This document shows, in pieces, positions 7,680-64,000 of a stretch of DNA of 64,000 nt. Origin of the DNA: Malacoraja senta (lineage: Eukaryota); contig CM075987.1 of the NCBI GenBank assembly GCA_038087875.1, positions 23,190,001 to 23,254,000 on the forward strand, in the 5' to 3' direction. A program made the translations under genes and the position numbers. The notes beneath the pieces were generated by a model, which saw only the letters and a program-made list of their open reading frames with translations, ran no database searches and was not told the origin of the DNA. Numbering within the stretch: position 1 is the first letter of the stretch; each line of letters starts with the position of its first letter.

Positions 7680-8408
<729 letters not shown>

Positions 8409-15760: not shown

Positions 15761-15958
<198 letters not shown>

Positions 15959-19072: not shown

Positions 19073-19272
19073 NNNNNNNNNNNNNNNNNNNNNNNNNNNN
19101 NNNNNNNNNNNNNNNNNNNNNNNNNNNNNNNNNNNNNNNNNNNNNNNNNNNNNNNNNNNNNNNNNNNNNNNNNNNNNNNNNNNNNNNNNNNNNNNNNNNN
19201 NNNNNNNNNNNNNNNNNNNNNNNNNNNNNNNNNNNNNNNNNNNNNNNNNNNNNNNNNNNNNNNNNNNNNNNN
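19073..19272. other. Assembly gap (200 N)
   Basis: N run following a long (TG)n tract. Confidence 1.
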
Positions 19273-21660: not shown

Positions 21661-22144
21661 GGAGGCTGACTCTGACACTTGGGTCCAACGAATGATTCCG
21701 ACCAGAAACGTCACCCACAGGCGCAACCACAAACGGCTCAGTCTCAGTCTCGGTGGCCGCGGCAGGGAGGGAGGGTTCGACACTGACCCGAGACAGGCCA
21801 AGTCCTTCGTTGCAGTAACTCATGGCTGCGTTCCTAGTTCACATCTTTGTGTCGATCTGCTTTTGTTTGTTTGTTTGTTTGTTTGTGCAGTCAGTCACTG
21901 CATCAACCTGAGTCTGTTGAATAATTCCTTTTCAATTTACCAAGCCGTTGAGTGTTTGTACATTTGCATTCTTGGCCTCTGTCGCTACTTTGGTTGGAAC
22001 TGGGTAGTCAGTCGTGTATCTCAAAGTACTCCAGTTGCTGAAAGGCTTCTGAAGTACAGTCTCCGTCGTAAATCACAAACAGCCGCAGAGGTTTTGCACT
22101 CGTCCAAGTCTGGTTAATAGCAAGGTGGTAGTAACCACACTAAC

Positions 22145-22287
22145 TTCTTCTTCTTCTTGCGTGTGGCGTGCACAGCCTAAAGTTGTAGGACAACTTGTTC
22201 TATTTGATCTTCCGTTTGTGCACGTCGAGTTGATTGCATTCGTCGAAACAGGGTGGACCACGTGAAGGTTGCAATCTCCCACCCCCC
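22145..22287 (-). mobile_element. 143-bp non-autonomous retroelement (Vingi/Ingi- or RTE-like) with a 5' HDV-like ribozyme and (GAA)n tail
   Basis: 10-bp TSD ccacactaac at 22135-22144 and 22288-22297; (ttc)n on the plus strand is the 3' tail; ribozyme fold at the 5' end. Confidence 0.8.
22232..22285 (-). ncRNA. Minimal HDV-like self-cleaving ribozyme (predicted)
   Basis: GGGGUGG-GA-GAUUGCA-ACC-UUCACGU-GGU-CCACCCU-G-UUUCGA-C-GAA-UGCAAUC. P1 has 7 bp with a G1-U wobble, P2 7 bp, P3 3 bp, L3 7 nt, J4/2 is CGAA. Confidence 0.85.
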
Positions 22288-22528
22288 CCACACTAACCGA
22301 TGGCCATAAACAGTACATCCGGCTGAAAGGTAACTGTTTTTCGGGGAGAAGTCCCAGGCTCCCGAAATATTGCCCTGGGTTATTCCATGTTGTACTGATT
22401 GGTTGATTGGGTTAAAACGTGGCCGTTTTCACCTAGCCCATGGTTGACAATGGCCTGTTTCCTTTGTCATCGTAACTTCGTTGCATATATTTAATTCATT
22501 TGTTCCATATCTCTCGTTTCACTTTCCA

Positions 22529-29577: not shown

Positions 29578-31327
29578 GAACACCATGGCCATGTGAGACG
29601 CCCCTCTGCCTCCAGAATGCTATCAATATAGGAGCAACTCGGAATTCACCATCTCTGCTGATCTGATAACATTTCCACAAAGCAGCCAGCATCATTGGAT
29701 CATGATGACTTCCCCCACCTCGGCCTGTAACCTTGCACCGTTAGCACGATCAGCAAAGCACAAGCCAAGCCTTCAGTCTTTGGTATAATCTTACATATTG
29801 TTCAGTACAATTCTTATATCTTCAGTTTAAACCAGCATCTGCAATTCCTTCCTACAACTTCAGTCTCTTCTGTTGGTTCAATGTCCGTCTTGGGACATTT
29901 AACTACATTAAAGGTGTAATTTGCGATTGCCACAATCTTACTGAAAAAAAAAGGTGAGCGATGTTCCCATGGAAACTGAGGGGTACCTGACTTGCCTACA
30001 GATATTTTGTTTGTGTCATTGCAGTTGCACATATGGGCCATGGAGTAGTGCTGCGTTCACTCTGGTCCAACAAGCAATGCTTGGCACGTCTGCCCAGTCC
30101 AACAGAGAGGGCTAATCAATACGTCCTAGACGGCTCAGGAACGGGAACACACTCTGAGCTTGAGTCAACAAAGCCTGTGTTTCTGGGGAAGGCTCTTGAC
30201 ATCCCAACTCTCTCCCTTCGAGGTGCGAAGCCCGGTTACAGGATTTATATCAACAATAGAATTGAAAATGCCATGGAGTGAGCCCCCGGAAAGCAGAGGG
30301 GCGATTGGGATACGAGGAAGGTTGTGGTTTTTCACATATGGTAGATGGCAGGGGTGAGTGGATGGGAAATCTGTGGGAAGAGCATTTTTTCCAAAGATAG
30401 AAATGTCAAAGACCAGAGGGCATAGCTTTAAGGTGAGAGGGGGATACTTTAAAGGAGATGTTTTGTTTAGTTTCGAGATACAGGCCCTTCAGCCCAATGA
30501 GTCCGCCATCCTCGTACATTCACAGTATCCTACACACACTAGGGACAATTTACAATTTTACCCAAGCCAATTGGCCTACAAAACTTGTACGTCTTTGGAG
30601 TGTGGGAGCTCGCGGAGAAAACCCACGCAAGTCACGGTACTTGGTATCGAACCCGGGACTCTGGCGCTGTAAAGCGGCAACTTTACCGCTGCGCCACCGT
30701 GTCGCCCTTTGCTGGGCTTTGTTTTTACACAGAGTGATGGATGCCCGGAACGTGCTGCTGGGGGTGGTGGTGGTGGAGGCAGATATGATATTGTGTTTAA
30801 AAGGCTTTTAGGGACATGCAGGGAATGGAGGAGTGTTGATCACTTACAGACAGAGGAGATTGGTATAACTCGGCATCATGGTTGGCACGAGCATTGTGGG
30901 CCGAAGGGCCTGTTCCTGTACTGTACTATGTTCTCCGTTTAAGATTGCTTAGGTTAGTTTAGAGATACATCGCGGAAACAGTCCCTTCGGCCCACCGACT
31001 CCGTGCCGACCAGCGATCCCCGCACATTAACACTATCCTACACACACTAGGGACAACTTTTACATTTATACCAAGCCAATTAACCTACAAACCTGTACTT
31101 CTTTGGAGTGAGGGAGGAAACTGAAGATCTTGGAGAAAACCCACGCAGGTCACGAGGAGAACTTACAAACTCCGTACGGACAGGATCGAACCCGGGTCTC
31201 TGGCGCTGTAAGGCAATAGCTCTACCGCATGTAGACAAAAACGCTGGAGAAACTCAGCGGGTGCGGCAGCATCTATGGAGCGAAGGAAATAGGCAACGTT
31301 TCGGGCCGAAACCCTTCTTCAGACTGA

Positions 31328-31541
31328 CACTGACCCTCACTGGGGAACAGGTCCCACACACACACACACTGACCCTCACTGGGGTACAGGTCCCACACAC
31401 ACACACACTGACCCTCACTGGGGTACAGGTCCCACACACACACACACTGACCCTCACTGGGGTACAGGTCCCACACACACACACACTGACCCTCACTGGG
31501 GTACAGGTCCCACACACACAGACCCTCACTGGGGAACAGGT

Positions 31542-31574
<33 letters not shown>

Positions 31575-31697
31575 ACCCTCACTGGGGTACAGGTCCCACA
31601 CACACTGACCCTCACTGGGGTACACGTCCCACACACACACACTGACCCTCACTGGGGTACAGGTCCCACACACACAGACCCTCACTGGGGAACAGGT

Positions 31698-31740
<43 letters not shown>

Positions 31741-32319
31741 ACCCTCACTGGGGTACAGGTCCCACACACACACACTGACCCTCACTGGGGTACACGTCCC
31801 ACACACACACACTGACCCTCACTGGGGTACAGGTCCCACACACACACACACACACTGACCCTCACTGGGGTACAGGTCCCACACACACACTGACCCTCAC
31901 TGGGGTACAGGTCCCACACACACACACACACACTGACCCTCACTGGGGTACAGGTCCCACACACACAGACCCTCACTGGGGTACAGGTCCCACACACACA
32001 CACTGACCCTCACTGGGGTACAGGTCCCACACACACACTGACCCTCACTGGGGTACAGGTCACACACACACACACTGACCCTCACTGGGGTACAGGTCCC
32101 ACACACACAGACCCTCACTGGGGTACAGGTCCCACACACACAGACCCTCACTGGGGTACAGGTCCCACACACACACACACACACACTGACCCTCACTGGG
32201 GAACAGGTCCCACACACACACACACTGACCCTCACTGGGGTACAGGTCCCACACACACACACACTGACCCTCACTGGGGTACAGGTCCCACACACACACA
32301 CTGACCCTCACTGGGGTAC
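31328..32319. repeat. Minisatellite ctgaccctcactggggtacaggtcc(ca)n, about 26 units
   Basis: Direct inspection: constant core with a variable CA spacer. Confidence 0.97.
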
Positions 32320-48395: not shown

Positions 48396-49760
48396 TAAGA
48401 AAGAAGAAAGATTTGCTCTTCTACAGCGCTCTTCTCAACCTCAGGCATCTGGGCAGCCAGAAATGGATCATGATTCCATGGGGCCTGTTGTGGGTGATGT
48501 CCATATACCCTGTGAGATTCCACGGGGCCTGTTATGGGTGATGTCCATATACCCTGTGCCACTTGTTGTAGAATGTCTCAGGCATCTCAACCTCAGGCAT
48601 CTGAAAGGACTGCAGCCAATTTGTGTACAACTGGGGCACACTTGCTGCTTTTTCTGAACCAAAATTAGGTATTAGTTTCTGGCCCGTACTCCAGGAAGAA
48701 CTTACTGCTCTCTTTTGAAATAGCTTTTCTGTGATCTTTAATATTCATTCGAGAGGGCAGGAAAAAGGTTTGTGATTTTACGAGCCCAGTGAGACGGCCC
48801 GAATTTTAATCAGCCCGAACCAGACCAGCAGTGAATTCCCTGAGCCTCTCTGACAGCGGAGCAGCAGCCATTTTGTGATCCCCATGCCTGGGGTGACAAG
48901 TAAGCCCATTATGTTCTGGATGCTTCAGGGACATAAGTTAATTCCAGAATAAAAGCATTGTGTTTTGCCGGGTAACTGTTCGCTTGCATTTTCACGCGGC
49001 CTACAACAAGAGAGAGAGATTTCCTTAGAGTCGAACAATCTGGCGGCAGATAATGGCAAACCGTCAAAGGTAATCTTGATTAAGGATCAGGGGGGGGAAA
49101 CTGATGCAAAGCAAAGCTGGTGTATTCATTAACTGCTGGGAACTGAGTTTTCTGCAAAATATAATGAGTTACCAGCACATTGTGACATCTCTCTGCTTGA
49201 ACTAAAGGCATAGTGACTTCCTATGCCTGCTTCCCACTGCTCAAGTGCTCCCACTGATTTCTTTTGAAAGGAGGAAATGAATTTGTTGAAAGATGTGCGA
49301 TGATGATTTCAGAAAGAAGTGCAGGTGCTCATTCATCTTAATAGTATCACTTGTCGGCCGGCTAAAGGCTAGGATTTATTCCAAGCTTCATCTCTCCACT
49401 GGACTTGACTGAAATTAATATTTGTCACTTACATTGTGATGGTTGCGTTTGCATTGTGACCGGCGAAGAGTTACGATCCCCTTCACAACACGAGGCACCA
49501 TCCATGTTCCCCAGGCACCCTCAGGCTGTAGAATTGTTGAGTGAGTGATATTCATCCCGACTGACCCTGAGATGAGGTGAATCCTGACTGTGATTTTGCC
49601 AACAGGACCGAGAGGGATGTTTCACTACTTTTATCCATTAGTATTCAGGCTGTGCTTGTATATAATCTATCAAGTTAAGCTTTGGCCAAGTAAGAGTTAG
49701 AGAGTCAGGTCCCATTCGAAGAACTTGGTTCTCTTGTTCATACAGTACGTGGGATGTGGG

Positions 49761-49827
49761 GGCCCCACAGCAGAAGCGTCCACGTCGCGGGGCTGGAAGC
49801 TGGAAGTATCCTGAGCTAATTCTACCA
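49761..49827 (+). ncRNA. HDV-like (CPEB3-like) ribozyme, partly decayed
   Basis: GGCCCC-A-CAGCAGAA-GCG-UCCACGU-CGC-GGGGCU-GG-(P4)-C-UAA-UUCUACCA. P1 has 6 bp with G-U; P3 and P1.1 are intact; distal P2 is mismatched. Confidence 0.7.
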
Positions 49828-49955
49828 CCACCGTCATCTATTGCCACAAGTGATGGCTCCTACTGATTGTCGCCGGAAGCTTGCGTCCTTTTCAGGACGG
49901 ACGATGATAGCGATGTCAACATTTGAAACGTGGAAGATGGACAGGAAGGAAGAAG
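49761..49955 (+). mobile_element. 195-bp internally deleted Vingi-like retroelement with a 5' HDV/CPEB3-like ribozyme
   Basis: 12-bp TSD gtgggatgtggg at 49749-49760 and 49956-49967; gaaggaagaag tail; short ATG-initiated remnant (MAPTDCRRKLASFSGRTMIAMS) after the ribozyme. Confidence 0.75.
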
Positions 49956-50489
49956 GTGGGATGTGGGAGTTAATAGTCAATAACGGCTTTAGTGTTTTAT
50001 TTGTCACATATGCAACTGCACGGTGACATTCTTTTTACATCTATTACACATGCGGGCACTGACGATTTTGGTGCCATTATTCAAAGTCCAAAGTCCAGTC
50101 GGCTCATCCGGCCATCTTTGTGTCCCGGGGACACCTCCTGCAGCCGGCCTTGGTGCTGGAGGCATTACCTCGGTTCGCCCCCCTACCGGCCCTTCCTCCT
50201 CCTCGCCTCCGACATCTCTATCTCTCTCCCGGTCCCACCCACCGACCGACCGACGAACCTTCGGGCGGGCCCTGACGAGCCTTAGAGTCACAGAGTCATA
50301 CAGCACGGAAACAGGCACTTCGGCCCAATTTGTTCATACCGACCGACATGCCCCATCTACACTTGTCCCACCTGCCCACGTCCCCCCCCCCCCCCCCACC
50401 CCCCGTATCTCTCTAAACCTGTCCTATCCATGTACCTGTCCAAATGTCTTTTAAATGTTGCTCACTGAACTTGACGATAAGAAATGTTG

Positions 50490-54434: not shown

Positions 54435-54634
54435 NNNNNNNNNNNNNNNNNNNNNNNNNNNNNNNNNNNNNNNNNNNNNNNNNNNNNNNNNNNNNNNNNN
54501 NNNNNNNNNNNNNNNNNNNNNNNNNNNNNNNNNNNNNNNNNNNNNNNNNNNNNNNNNNNNNNNNNNNNNNNNNNNNNNNNNNNNNNNNNNNNNNNNNNNN
54601 NNNNNNNNNNNNNNNNNNNNNNNNNNNNNNNNNN
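54435..54634. other. Assembly gap (200 N)
   Basis: N run. Confidence 1.
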
Positions 54635-59620: not shown

Positions 59621-61535
59621 CTGTCAGGGAGGGAAGAAAGAAACATCCAGTTGAGAGGACTCAGTGCGCCGCTGTGTGGAAGAAGTGCCGTGATAAAGGG
59701 CGGCACCATAACCACCTGCCTCGTTATTAGTTTAGTTTAGAGATGCAGTGTGGAAACAGGCCCTTTGTCCGCACCGACTAACGATCCACATACACTAGTG
59801 CTATCCTACACACTATGGACATTCTGTGGAATTCTCTGCCTGAGAGGGCGGTGGAGGCAGGTTCTCTGGATGCTTTCAAGAGAGAACTAGATAGGGCTCT
59901 TAAAAATAGCGGAGTCAGGGGATATGGGGAGAAGGCAGGAACGGGGTACTGATTGGGGATGATCAGCCATGATCACATTGAATGGCGGTGCTGGCTCGAA
60001 GGGCCGAATGGCCTAATCCTGCGCCTATTGTCTATTGGCTATTGACATCTTACAATTCTTACCAAAGCCATTAACCTACAGATGTCTATGTCTTTGGGAT
60101 GTGGGAGGAAACCGGAGCACCTGGCGAAAACCCACTCGGTCACGGGGAGAACGTACAGACGCCGTACAGACAGCACCCGTAGTCAGGATCAAACCCGGGT
60201 CTCTGGCGCTGTAAGGCAGCAACTCTACCGCTGCGCCACCACGCCTCTTGTTATCTTGCCCCATTCTCCTCACTGCCATCTAATGATGTTTGATCTCACT
60301 CTGTCCAATGTCCAGTTGAACCTCACTGTAAAATGATTTGTTGAACACACACCATCTCATGATCTGTTGTACTTGATACTATTTAATACCTGTTGAACAC
60401 CTAGTGTCCAATGGCCTATTGTATCGCATTGAATTAAATCTACTCTAAAGCCTCATGACCTAGGCAATGATCAGTTGAACCTCATCTCGTCCAGTGAATT
60501 CTCGGACCTCTATGTCGACTGACTTGCAGGATACATTCGGGTCTCGACCCGAAACGCCACCTATTCCTTTTCTCCAGAGATGCTGCCTGACCTGCTGAGT
60601 TACTCCAGAATGTATGTCCATCTTCCCAATCCAATGTCAAATTCTATATGATACCATGGATCATCAGAATATTGGATCATGAGTTATTCCGCAAGTCAAG
60701 TGAGCAATAAAAATCGATCGAGGTTGATATCTAGCCTAACCTCATCCTCCTGTAACATGTGTGATAACAGTCTCAGTTAAAGTCTCCATTTGAATTCAGC
60801 TTCGAGAGATTGTTAAAGGGGAGGGATACAGATTCTCACTACCCGTGCAACAAATATCTCCTGCCATTACCCCTGAAAAACCTTCCAGGGCTGGTGGGTG
60901 GAGGCAGATACGATGGAGGCTTTTAAGAGGCTTTTTGGATAGGCACATGGATATGCAGGGAATGGAGGGATACGGATCACGTACAGGTAGTGATTAGCAG
61001 AAGATAGACACAAAAATGCTGGAGCAGCTCAGCAGGACAGGCAGCATCTCTGGAGAGAAGGAGTGGGTGACGTTTCGGGTCGAGGCCCTTCTTCAGACTC
61101 AGACTCTTCAGGGTCTCGACCCGAAAACATCACCCGTTCCTTCTCTCCAGAGATGCTGCCTGTCCCGCTGAGTGACCCCAGCTTTTTGAGTCTATCTTCG
61201 GTTTAAACCAGCATCTGCAGTTCCTTCCTACACTGGAGATGAGTAGAACTTGGATTGATGTTTGGTGGTGGACATTGTGGATCGAGGGGACTGTTCCTGT
61301 CTTGTACTCTTCTATGTTGTTAACATTACCGACTCCCTTTCCCCTGAGGAAAGGGCCCATCTCCATTGACCCTGTCGCAGTTTATGAGGATCTCCCTTCG
61401 ATCCTCTCCAGGATCCGCTGCTGTGTAAGGGAGTACCCGTCAAGGCAAGCTGCCCTCATTATTGCTGTAAAATGGGTGCCTTGGGTGTGAGGCTGGTGTT
61501 ATTGCAGAGATACAGAGCCGGCGTTCTCGGCCTAC

Positions 61536-61794
61536 CATCGGGGAAGTCGGGGTGGCAGAGATACAGGTCCTTGCAGGTCCGTGCAGGGTTGTTCTGGGTG
61601 CCCATGGGGTGCTTCATCTGTTCTATCTCCAGCTTCAGCGAGTTCAGGGAACCAAAGATCTCCTCCATGCCATCGGCGTAATCCAGGTAATTCTCCGGGT
61701 TCCCTTCTTCTAAAAATTGGCTCGCATCTATGGAACGTTTCGCTCTCCTTGCCGAGTGGTACGGGAGTGATTGAATGACCTCTCCAGTTCGACC
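61536..61794 (-). CDS. COL5A1: Fibrillar collagen (alpha-1(V)-like) C-telopeptide/C-propeptide joining exon
   Basis: [86 protein letters not shown](G). AG/GT boundaries, 259 nt, furin-type RAKR site. The symbol is the best match; a COL5A3 or COL11A2 ohnolog is not excluded. Confidence 0.92.
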
Positions 61795-62118
61795 CTGGGG
61801 ATGAATCCAATTATTTACTTTTAGTAAAACAGAATGGGCAATGGTTCAGTAATGCCTTTTGCCGTGCGTTGGACAGAGAGAGACTCATAAACCACATTCA
61901 GAGACTGGCGAACATTCACAGCAATTGCCTGTTCTTAACCAAGGCTGAAACACAGATGAGAAGCTGAGGTCCACGTTGGGAGAAACACCAGTTGCAGTTT
62001 AGTTTATTGTCACGTGTATCGAGGTACAGTGGAAAGCTTCTGTTCCGTGCCATCCAGTCAGCGGAAACACAACACATGATTACAATCGATCCATTTACAC
62101 CGCAGAGATGAATGATAA

Positions 62119-63028
62119 AACACAAAGCTGGGTGGCAGTGTGAACTGTGAGGAGGATGCTATGAGAATGCACGGTGACTTGGACAGGTTGGGGGAGCGGG
62201 CAGATGCACGGCAGATGAAGTTTAATGCGGATAAATGTGAGGTTATCCACTTTGGTGGCAAAACAGGAAGGCAGATTGCTATCTAAATGGCGTCAAGTTG
62301 GAATAAAGGGGAAGAACAACGGGATCTGGGGGTCCTTGTTCATCAGTCTATGAAAGTAAGCATGCAGGTACAGCAGGCAGTGAAGAAAGCGAATGGCATG
62401 TTGGCCTTTATAACAAGAGGAATCGAATATAGGAGCAAAGAGGTCCTTCTGCAGTTGTACAGAGCCCTAGTGAGACTACACCTGGAGTATTGTGTGCAGT
62501 TTTGGTCCCCTAATTTGAGGAAGGACATTCTTGCTATTGAGGGAGTGCAGCGTAGGTTTACAAGGTTAACTCCCGGGATGGCGGGACTGTCATATGCTGA
62601 GAGAATGGAGCAGCTGGGCTTGTACACTCTGGAGTTTAGAGGATCTCATTGAAACATATAAGATTGTTAAGGGTTTGGACACGCTAGAGGCAGGGAACAT
62701 GTTCCCGATGTTGGGGGAGCCCAGAACCAGGGGCCACAGTTTAAGAATAAGGAGTAAGCCATTTAGAACGGAGACAAGGAAACACTTTTTCTCACCGAGA
62801 GTGGTGAGTTTGTGGAATTCTCTGCCCCAGAGGGCGGTGGAGGCAGGTTCTCTGGATGCTTTCAAGAGAGAGCTAGATAGGGCTCTTAAAAATAGCGGAG
62901 TCAGGGGATATGGGGAGAAGGCAGGAACGGGGTACTGATTGGGGATGATCAGCCATGATCGCATTGAATGGCGGTGCTGGCTGGAAGGGCCGAATGGCCT
63001 ACTCCTGCACCTATTGTCTATTGTCTAT
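62119..63028 (+). mobile_element. 5'-truncated CR1 inserted into a Rex1/Babar-type LINE end
   Basis: ORF2 C-terminal remnants with frameshift; tgataa TSD at 62113-62118 and 63029-63034; host LINE at about 61995-62118 and 63029-63372 on the minus strand. Confidence 0.85.
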
Positions 63029-63376
63029 TGATAAGGGAATAACGTTTAGTGCAAGGTAAAGCCAGCAAAAAATCTGATCAAGGATAGTCCGAGGGTCACC
63101 GATGAGACAGATAGTAGTTCAGCACTGCTCTCTGGTTGTGGTAGGATGGTTTAGCTGCCTGATAACAGCTGGGAAGAAACTGTCCCTGAATCTGGAGGTG
63201 TGCGTTTTCACACTTCTGTACCTTTTGTCTGATGGGAGAGGGGAGAAGAAGGAGTGGCCGGGGTGCGACTCGTCTGTGATTATGTCGAGGCAGCGTGAGG
63301 TATAAATGGAGTCAATGGAAGGGAGGTTGGTTTGTGTGATGGTCTGGGCTGCGTCCACGATTTGCTGCAATGAATG

Positions 63377-64000
63377 AGTTTGAGTATAGGAGCAGTGAGG
63401 TTCTACTGCAGTTGTACAGGGTCTTGGTGAGACCACACCTGGAGTATTGCGTACAGTTTTGGTCTCCAAATCTGAGGAAGGACATTATAGCCATAGAGGG
63501 AGTGCAGAGAAGGTTCACCAGACTGATTCCTGGGATGTCAGGACTTTCATATGAAGAAAGACTGGATAGACTTGGCTTATACTCGCTAGAATTTAGGAGA
63601 TTGAGAGGGGATCTTATAGAAACGTACAAGATTCTTATGGGGTTGGACAGGCTAGATGCAGGAAGATTGTTCCCGATGTTGGGGAAGTCCAGGACAAGGG
63701 GTCACAGCTTAAGGATAAGGGGAAAATCCTTTAAGACCGAGATGAGGAAAAACTTTTTCACACAGAGAGTGGTGAATCTCTGGAACTCTCTGCCACAGAG
63801 GGTAGTTGAGGCCAGTTCATTGGCTATATTTAAGAGGGAATTAGATGTGGCCCTTGTGGCTAAAGGGATCAGGGGGTATGGAGAGAAGGCAGGTACGGGA
63901 TACTGAGTTGGATGATCAGCCATGATCGTATTGAATGGCGGTGCAGGCTCGAAGGGCCGAATGGCCTACTCCTGCACCTAATTTCTATGTATCTATGTAT
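63377..64000 (+). mobile_element. 5'-truncated young CR1
   Basis: Uninterrupted ORF2 C-terminus (63370-63906) and 3' tail. Confidence 0.9.

Follow-up and report, generated by a model that had tools for sequence, protein, structure and literature searches.

A short, high-copy retroelement headed by a predicted P4-less HDV-like ribozyme and probably mobilised by RTE-like LINEs

Ribozyme-headed non-autonomous non-LTR elements are already a known kind of mobile DNA. The R2 SIDEs and the NARTc elements of Trypanosoma cruzi are presented in excerpts of PMC3414825 and PMC3383444 as non-autonomous derivatives of ribozyme-bearing LINEs, and "bipartite nonautonomous LINEs" are attributed to the RTE, Ingi and R2 clades in an excerpt of PMC5786205, which also cites Ruminski et al. 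2011 for RTE-clade LINEs with 5' HDV-like ribozymes. The RTE clade itself is characterised, in a section of PMC2887409, by one open reading frame of about 1,000 aa, a minimal simple-repeat 3'UTR and target-site duplications of 6-12 bp. Two further groups of ribozymes are relevant here. HDV-like ribozymes that have no P4 helix and are active in vitro come almost entirely from Caudoviricetes phages, often 3' of tRNAs, according to PMC10879173; the CPEB3 ribozyme is described in a passage of PMC8233481 as unknown outside mammals.

Here we describe an element at positions 22145-22287, on the minus strand, of a 64-kb stretch of Malacoraja senta DNA, the whole of which was analysed and is called the window. 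We consider it likely that the element belongs to a family of short retroelements that depend on LINEs, and that its predicted ribozyme head processes the 5' end of its RNA. The SIDEs, NARTc and bipartite LINEs share with it a short, non-coding, LINE-dependent organisation, a 5' HDV-like ribozyme that determines where the RNA begins and a 3' end that a LINE enzyme recognises, features that are predicted in the case of the element; unlike the element, they are internal-deletion copies that keep both ends of their parent. What appears to be new is a minimal P4-less ribozyme in an animal genome, on an element of about 9,000 copies and without a matching parent. Searches of open-access papers turned up no published description of such an element.

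Layout and predicted ribozyme fold

Read along the minus strand from 22297 to 22135, the locus consists of a 10-bp repeat, GG, a 141-nt unit ending in AAGAAGAAGAAGAA, and the 10-bp repeat again; the element is thus 141-143 bases long. Its parts are as follows.

22288-22297, minus strand: 5' target-site duplication, GTTAGTGTGG, a perfect 10-bp match to 22135-22144
22286-22287, minus strand: two additional G separating the duplication from the family 5' end; family homology and contig boundaries begin at 22285
22232-22285, minus strand: predicted 54-nt minimal HDV-like ribozyme fold (base pairs checked, descriptor match, genome copies)
22242, minus strand: candidate catalytic cytosine, first base of J4/2, placed from the fold and the CPEB3 consensus line
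22159-22231, minus strand: non-coding body, comprising a linker, an 8-bp stem and then CCACACGC ahead of the tail
22217-22224 with 22167-22174, minus strand: predicted 8-bp stem, enclosing a middle part that varies between subfamilies
22145-22158, minus strand: (GAA)n tail, which together with the preceding ACACG forms the terminal motif
22135-22144, minus strand: 3' target-site duplication, GTTAGTGTGG, a perfect 10-bp match to the 5' copy

The initial annotation had set the cleavage site 2 nt from the 10-bp duplication, and two G at 22287-22286 do lie between them. It had also given about 85 nt followed by (GAA)n downstream of the ribozyme; the tail is present, and the correct length is 87 nt including it. 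ARAGORN detected no tRNA in the element, and a scan with an A- and B-box consensus found neither box within 2 mismatches, both in agreement with the claim that it has no tRNA head or Pol III boxes. The element has several traits of a SINE, being short, non-coding and high-copy, with target-site duplications and a LINE-type 3' end, and does not have the tRNA-, 7SL- or 5S-derived head with an internal Pol III promoter that defines a SINE in the strict sense. We call it SINE-like, and not a strict SINE, because it is without a Pol III head. The nested folding energy of the predicted stem in the 3' domain is not significant against shuffled sequences (z = -0.88).

The head can be drawn as a nested double pseudoknot in the order P1-P2-P3-L3-P3'-P1'-(P4)-J4/2-P2', with standard pairs throughout all of its helices.

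22279-22285 with 22250-22256, minus strand: P1, 7 bp, GGGGUGG/CCACCCU, with G1 (22285) opposite U22250
22277-22278, minus strand: J1/2, GA
22270-22276 with 22232-22238, minus strand: P2, 7 bp, GAUUGCA/UGCAAUC
22267-22269 with 22257-22259, minus strand: P3, 3 bp, ACC/GGU
22260-22266, minus strand: L3, UUCACGU
22249, minus strand: J1/4, G
22243-22248, minus strand: P4 remnant, 6 nt, UUUCGA, with at most one U-A pair
22239-22242, minus strand: J4/2, CGAA

Every one of these pieces, from P1, J1/2, P2 and P3 to L3, the reduced P4 and J4/2, was seen as the initial annotation had described it on the minus strand. In the head, G1 stands opposite U, J4/2 contains a C, and an L3 C could pair with G22249 as a C-G P1.1; we take the roles of these three features to be those that they have in the HDV-like family. 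The P4 domain is absent, as in minimal HDV-like ribozymes. The likeness to drz-Mtgn and to the theta ribozymes of gut phages extends to the nested double pseudoknot without P4, the C in J4/2, which is catalytic in those ribozymes, and a length of about 50-60 nt. In contrast to the minimal ribozymes of phages, this one heads a retroelement, resides in an animal genome and has core bases of the CPEB3 type: L3 UUCACGU, J1/4 G, J4/2 CGAA and the G1 opposite U are identical in the mammalian CPEB3 ribozyme (RF00622). The CPEB3-type L3 and P1.1 had been proposed in the initial annotation, and the Rfam CPEB3 consensus lines, which show that same L3, J1/4 and J4/2, bear the proposal out. The element nevertheless differs from the CPEB3 ribozyme in giving no match to its model at E <= 10, in having no P4 and in the sequences of P1-P3; it is moreover a multi-copy mobile element, whereas the CPEB3 ribozyme occupies one conserved site in an intron.

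A descriptor that we wrote ourselves from the rules of HDV-like folds gave one match in the 64-kb window, at this locus, and none in any of 30 dinucleotide shuffles. This test, together with membership in a high-copy family, makes a chance origin very unlikely. The Rfam models returned no match for the element over 22145-22287 when searched across 21900-22500, even at E <= 10, and hence nothing that reached the 35-bit gathering threshold of RF00622; the consensus of that family, the only one to score related ribozymes here, includes a P4 helix, and its structure line lacks P2 pairing. The folding energy of the 54-nt head, computed for nested pairs with the P1/P2 pseudoknot outside the calculation, is unexceptional (-12.8 kcal/mol; z = +0.59; equalled or bettered by 139 of 200 shuffles).

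Copy number, 5' boundary and variation in the head

The 1.94-Gb genome contains 8,696 matches to 35 nt of the ribozyme core when up to 3 mismatches are allowed, and for 35 nt of the 3' end the count is 9,887; the reversed control gave 0 in both cases. Since the head count comes so close to the tail count, most copies are full length. A query with the whole element yielded 2,248 first-look candidates, and all 40 of those scored were 94-100% identical to it. Junction-specific searches distinguish at least three subfamilies, which keep the head and the last ~35 nt and have middles that cannot be aligned with one another. The target-site duplications differ from copy to copy, and the flanks are unrelated among copies, which means that the element does not carry an upstream promoter along when it moves. 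The variable duplications, the (GAA)n tail, the lack of coding capacity and the roughly 9,000 copies agree with the non-autonomous retroelement that had been inferred from the window alone; the genome-wide count, which the same annotation had suggested making, establishes that the sequence is not single-copy.

The 5' boundary of the family was examined in 72 ungapped heads from fetched loci (88 matches, 82 of them unique), a sample picked for having heads and for that reason uninformative on 5' truncation; a duplication of 6 nt or more is readable for 64 of these heads. It stands immediately next to G1 in 25 of the 64 copies, and in another 18 it overlaps the G run, which is ambiguous and compatible with a start at G1, so that a start at G1 of the predicted P1 fits 43 of 64. 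One or two extra bases precede G1 in 12 copies, as they do in the window, and a larger offset is seen in the other 9, some of which are poly-G or doubtful short matches. The same boundary is evident from four sequencing runs of four other organisms, taken as assembled contigs whose RNA status is guessed and which cover the element only: diverging flanks begin at 22285 in 29, 44, 13 and 463 records. The boundary of the family therefore coincides with the predicted cleavage site, as is expected if a ribozyme processes read-through transcripts. A fixed transcription start would equally be expected to give a sharp 5' end.

Common variants among the 72 heads are confined to positions 8, 32 and 45. 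Position 8, in J1/2, is G or A and differs in 28 heads; position 32, the partner of U5, is A in 23 and G in 49, and is paired in all 72; position 45, the second base of J4/2, is G or U and sometimes A or C, and differs in 34. The remaining changes are rare, several of them at CpG sites. The candidate catalytic C (position 44, 22242) is C in 70 of 72 heads, one exception being locus L036, which reads T. In the four other organisms, ribozyme variants at a frequency of at least 10% fall only at 22254 and 22241, that is, at positions 32 and 45. The common variants are thus structure-neutral, located where the fold tolerates change. Within the 72 heads the pair changes amount to a single one-sided case (U-A to U-G) and no double change, and there is therefore no true covariation inside the family.

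These data bear on the best placed of the alternatives, which we regard as unlikely: the head would be a decayed, P4-less and inactive relic, the sharp 5' end would stem from a fixed transcription start at an unrecognised internal or a fortuitous upstream promoter, and the fold would be kept for some other purpose such as RNA stability or protein binding. A P4 cut down to 6 nt, the lack of an Rfam match, the unremarkable folding energy and the lack of compensatory changes within the family are all what such a relic would show. The promoter that it calls for is hard to place, however, given that there is no tRNA, that no A or B boxes were found and that the flanks of the copies are unrelated. 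The pattern of conservation is also against it, as the bases that are kept are those of the unpaired core (L3, the J1/4 G, and the C and AA of J4/2) and the common variants are limited to those that a ribozyme fold tolerates; furthermore, P4-less relatives are active in vitro, as reported in an excerpt of PMC10879173. We favor a head that processes the RNA of the element over one that has lost this function.

Related LINEs, a sister family and the search for a parent

The terminal motif of the element, ACACG followed by the (GAA)n tail, is common to RTE-like LINEs and to a second family of short elements, which we refer to as the sister family. In the LINEs, a single ORF of about 1,000 aa encodes the endonuclease and reverse transcriptase domains and is followed by a 3'UTR of about 30 nt and an end of the form ACACGAAA(GAA)n. 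Two LINEs are concerned, the parent of the sister family and a related LINE; in the latter, copies of which have open frames of up to 1,014 aa, the 3' end is ACACGAAAA(GAA)n. A near-full copy of the parent LINE, L099, has a sister-type ribozyme, a 5'UTR, the ORF and a flanking duplication; its ORF contains Exo_endo_phos_2 and RVT_1 domains, the terminal motif and (GAA)n close it some 30 nt beyond the stop codon, and the ribozyme of this decayed copy scores 28.9 bits on the CPEB3 model. A single ORF of about 1,000 aa for an AP endonuclease and reverse transcriptase, with a very short simple-repeat 3'UTR, is the structure of the RTE clade, and we presume the partner LINEs to be RTE-like from these structural features as set against the description in PMC2887409. 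The presumed partners also have in common with the RTE-clade ribozyme LINEs the 5' ribozyme, in addition to the endonuclease/RT ORF of ~1,000 aa and the very short simple-repeat 3'UTR. Homologues of the LINE ORF are found as proteins of 970-1,000 aa on contigs of 3.0-3.4 kb from many animals.

Three copies of the related LINE have 5' ribozymes that score well on the CPEB3 model.

L103, 3416-3499, minus strand: related-LINE 5' ribozyme, 52.6 bits
L105, 336-419, plus strand: related-LINE 5' ribozyme, 63.8 bits
L104, 219-302, minus strand: related-LINE 5' ribozyme, 40.7 bits

These ribozymes carry long stretches identical to the mammalian CPEB3 model, have the L3 UUCACGU and J4/2 CGAA of the element, and possess a 7-bp P1 that starts with GGGG. 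Ahead of the complete ribozyme, tandem 26-nt units that repeat the P2/P3/L3 part are present in 6 or 4 copies on the reverse strand of L103 (~186-345) and of L104 (~234-345); L105 has a single unit.

The sister family is represented in the window itself.

49761-49955, plus strand: sister-family copy, with a full HDV-like/CPEB3-type ribozyme, then the RTE-like LINE 5'UTR and ORF start, then the LINE 3' end (Rfam, LINE homology)
49749-49760 and 49956-49967, plus strand: 12-bp duplications flanking this 195-nt element

Its match to RF00622 (49749-49826, 38.5 bits against the 35-bit threshold) is the only gathering-level Rfam match of the window, and three copies of the family score 38.5, 37.2 and 36.7 bits. 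The family has about 2,000 copies or more: among 2,037 first-look candidates, 31 of the 39 scored copies begin at 49761, and in ten further copies the start is the first base of P1, each with a duplication of its own. The family consists of the first ~160 nt of the LINE fused to its last ~38 nt, so that both ends come from one parent LINE, as in a bipartite non-autonomous LINE, and it fits the description of such elements in the excerpt of PMC5786205; the element at 22145-22287 differs from it in having a ribozyme without P4 and in that the junction searches described below found no parent with its head. Pattern searches for the sister junction gave 6 matches, two of which led to the LINE; another such search gave one unrelated match. 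The fold is retained between the element, the sister family and the LINEs while the helices differ completely in sequence, and it is in this comparison that covariation may be sought, although the helices may lack base-for-base homology.

For the element itself, candidate parents were sought with junction-spanning patterns, in which one side had to match the element and the other had to differ from it. The first pattern gave 3 matches, all of them indel variants. The second gave 5,195, which represent the second subfamily; the head is present in 18 of the 20 loci that were read, and the other two are 3' fragments that directly adjoin a different LINE's tail. The 127 matches of the third are deletion variants and the third subfamily, with a whole or partial head in all 11 loci read. 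A fourth pattern gave 95 matches, of which two classes were examined, namely a copy interrupted by an inverted-repeat element and a CR1-like tail joined to the last 27 nt; a fifth gave 4 indel variants; and a sixth gave 19 heterogeneous matches, the three that were read being an insertion, an inverted-repeat element and a deletion. These junction-specific genome searches and their follow-up did not find a LINE carrying the exact 54-nt head, and the likeness of the element to LINEs at the 3' end is confined to the last ~15 nt and the tail. The element does not, then, have both ends copied from one parent LINE as SIDEs and bipartite LINEs do, and for these two reasons its family is not a simple deletion derivative. 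The initial annotation had suggested looking for an autonomous LINE that shares both ends, and the outcome is divided: there is one for the sister family, and for the element the sharing extends to the last ~15 nt and the tail alone.

Two kinds of composite locus emerged alongside. A short element with terminal inverted repeats lies inside family copies at L084 (C1:109880650-109883200) and at L101, in the latter directly after the ribozyme, and an inverted-repeat junction just before the family 3' end recurs in at least 12 matches of the 95-match pattern; this reflects either a favored target for insertion or the spread of a composite subfamily. At L085, L034 and L044, 3' fragments of the family stand directly behind the microsatellite tail of a CR1-like LINE, and one of these junctions is seen 9 times or more among the matches of the 95-match pattern, which could be due to template switching or to insertion into tails.

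Proposed mechanism, the CPEB3 ribozyme and the host genes

In the mechanism that we propose, the element would have no promoter of its own and would be transcribed inside longer transcripts. Its first 54 nt would adopt a P4-less HDV-like double pseudoknot built on a CPEB3-type core, and this fold would cut the RNA immediately 5' of G1 (22285). The 3' terminal motif and (GAA)n of the released RNA would then be recognised by the endonuclease/reverse transcriptase of an RTE-like LINE, which would copy the RNA to its very end by target-primed reverse transcription and leave duplications of 6-15 bp; insertions would start at G1 because the copying proceeds to the very end. The possible fold, the copies and their duplications, the 5' boundary at G1 and the relatives with their shared 3' terminus are observed, and we infer the self-cleavage, the read-through transcription and the identity of the copying LINE. 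In this short element, which is no plain deletion copy of a LINE, a predicted ribozyme seems to take the role of a Pol III head; the ribozyme is of the minimal P4-less type, so far reported almost only from phages, and stands here at the head of an animal retroelement of about 9,000 copies.

A more far-reaching proposal, which we put forward tentatively and think somewhat more apt to fail than to hold, is that the head is an active, naturally minimised HDV-like ribozyme, which would make it the first without P4 to have a clear function in a eukaryote, that it shares a sequence lineage with the mammalian CPEB3 ribozyme, and that the latter is the domesticated 5' end of such an element. If this is true, the LINE and short-element families supply the outgroup that the CPEB3 ribozyme has been missing; judged by sequence likeness, it is possible that the 5' ribozymes of the related LINE are an outgroup for the CPEB3 ribozyme or its source. 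Because the ribozymes of the LINE and of the short elements resemble the CPEB3 sequence, the origin of the CPEB3 ribozyme becomes testable. The genes and repeats of the host suggest a vertebrate other than a mammal.

The host genes in the window were located by Pfam searches.

7680-8408, minus strand: olfactomedin-domain exon (Pfam OLF, 261 bits)
about 15761-15958, minus strand: weak further OLF exon (Pfam)
61459-61845, minus strand: fibrillar-collagen C-propeptide exon (Pfam COLFI, 55.5 bits)

Pfam searches of 134 minus-strand open frames and short-motif scans revealed no host exons beyond the two OLF exons and the one collagen exon. All three are on the minus strand, and the element therefore lies on the same strand as both host genes, as had been noted at the outset. 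This orientation, together with the intact core of the window copy, is what speaks for a host role in which the copy, its retroelement origin notwithstanding, cuts the pre-mRNA of the olfactomedin-type gene in the manner of the intronic CPEB3 ribozyme. We judge such a role very improbable: some 9,000 young insertions nearly identical to this copy exist, the searches located no exon upstream of it, and nothing points to conservation of the insertion. Across the whole family, host transcripts could be affected wherever potentially self-cutting sites, which may number in the thousands, lie within genes in the sense orientation.

We give the least credence of all to a chance resemblance to the HDV-like fold in an ordinary short retroelement, for while short helices can arise randomly and the thermodynamics are unsupportive, the descriptor matches this locus only and none of 30 shuffles, twelve unpaired core bases equal the CPEB3 consensus, the fold begins exactly at the family 5' end, and the LINEs and the sister family that share the 3' terminus have Rfam-significant 5' ribozymes of the same type. 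A LINE-dependent retroelement with a functional ribozyme head remains the reading that we prefer.

Some other features of the window may be recorded. It contains two runs of 200 N each, at 19073-19272 and 54435-54634, the first of them preceded by a (CA)n-type microsatellite. At ~31250-32310, the open frames of both strands read as a repeating peptide, which points to a long GT/CA-rich tandem repeat. C-terminal fragments of an abundant CR1-like LINE occupy 62287-63906 on the plus strand, and the same sequence flanks or interrupts many of the fetched loci.
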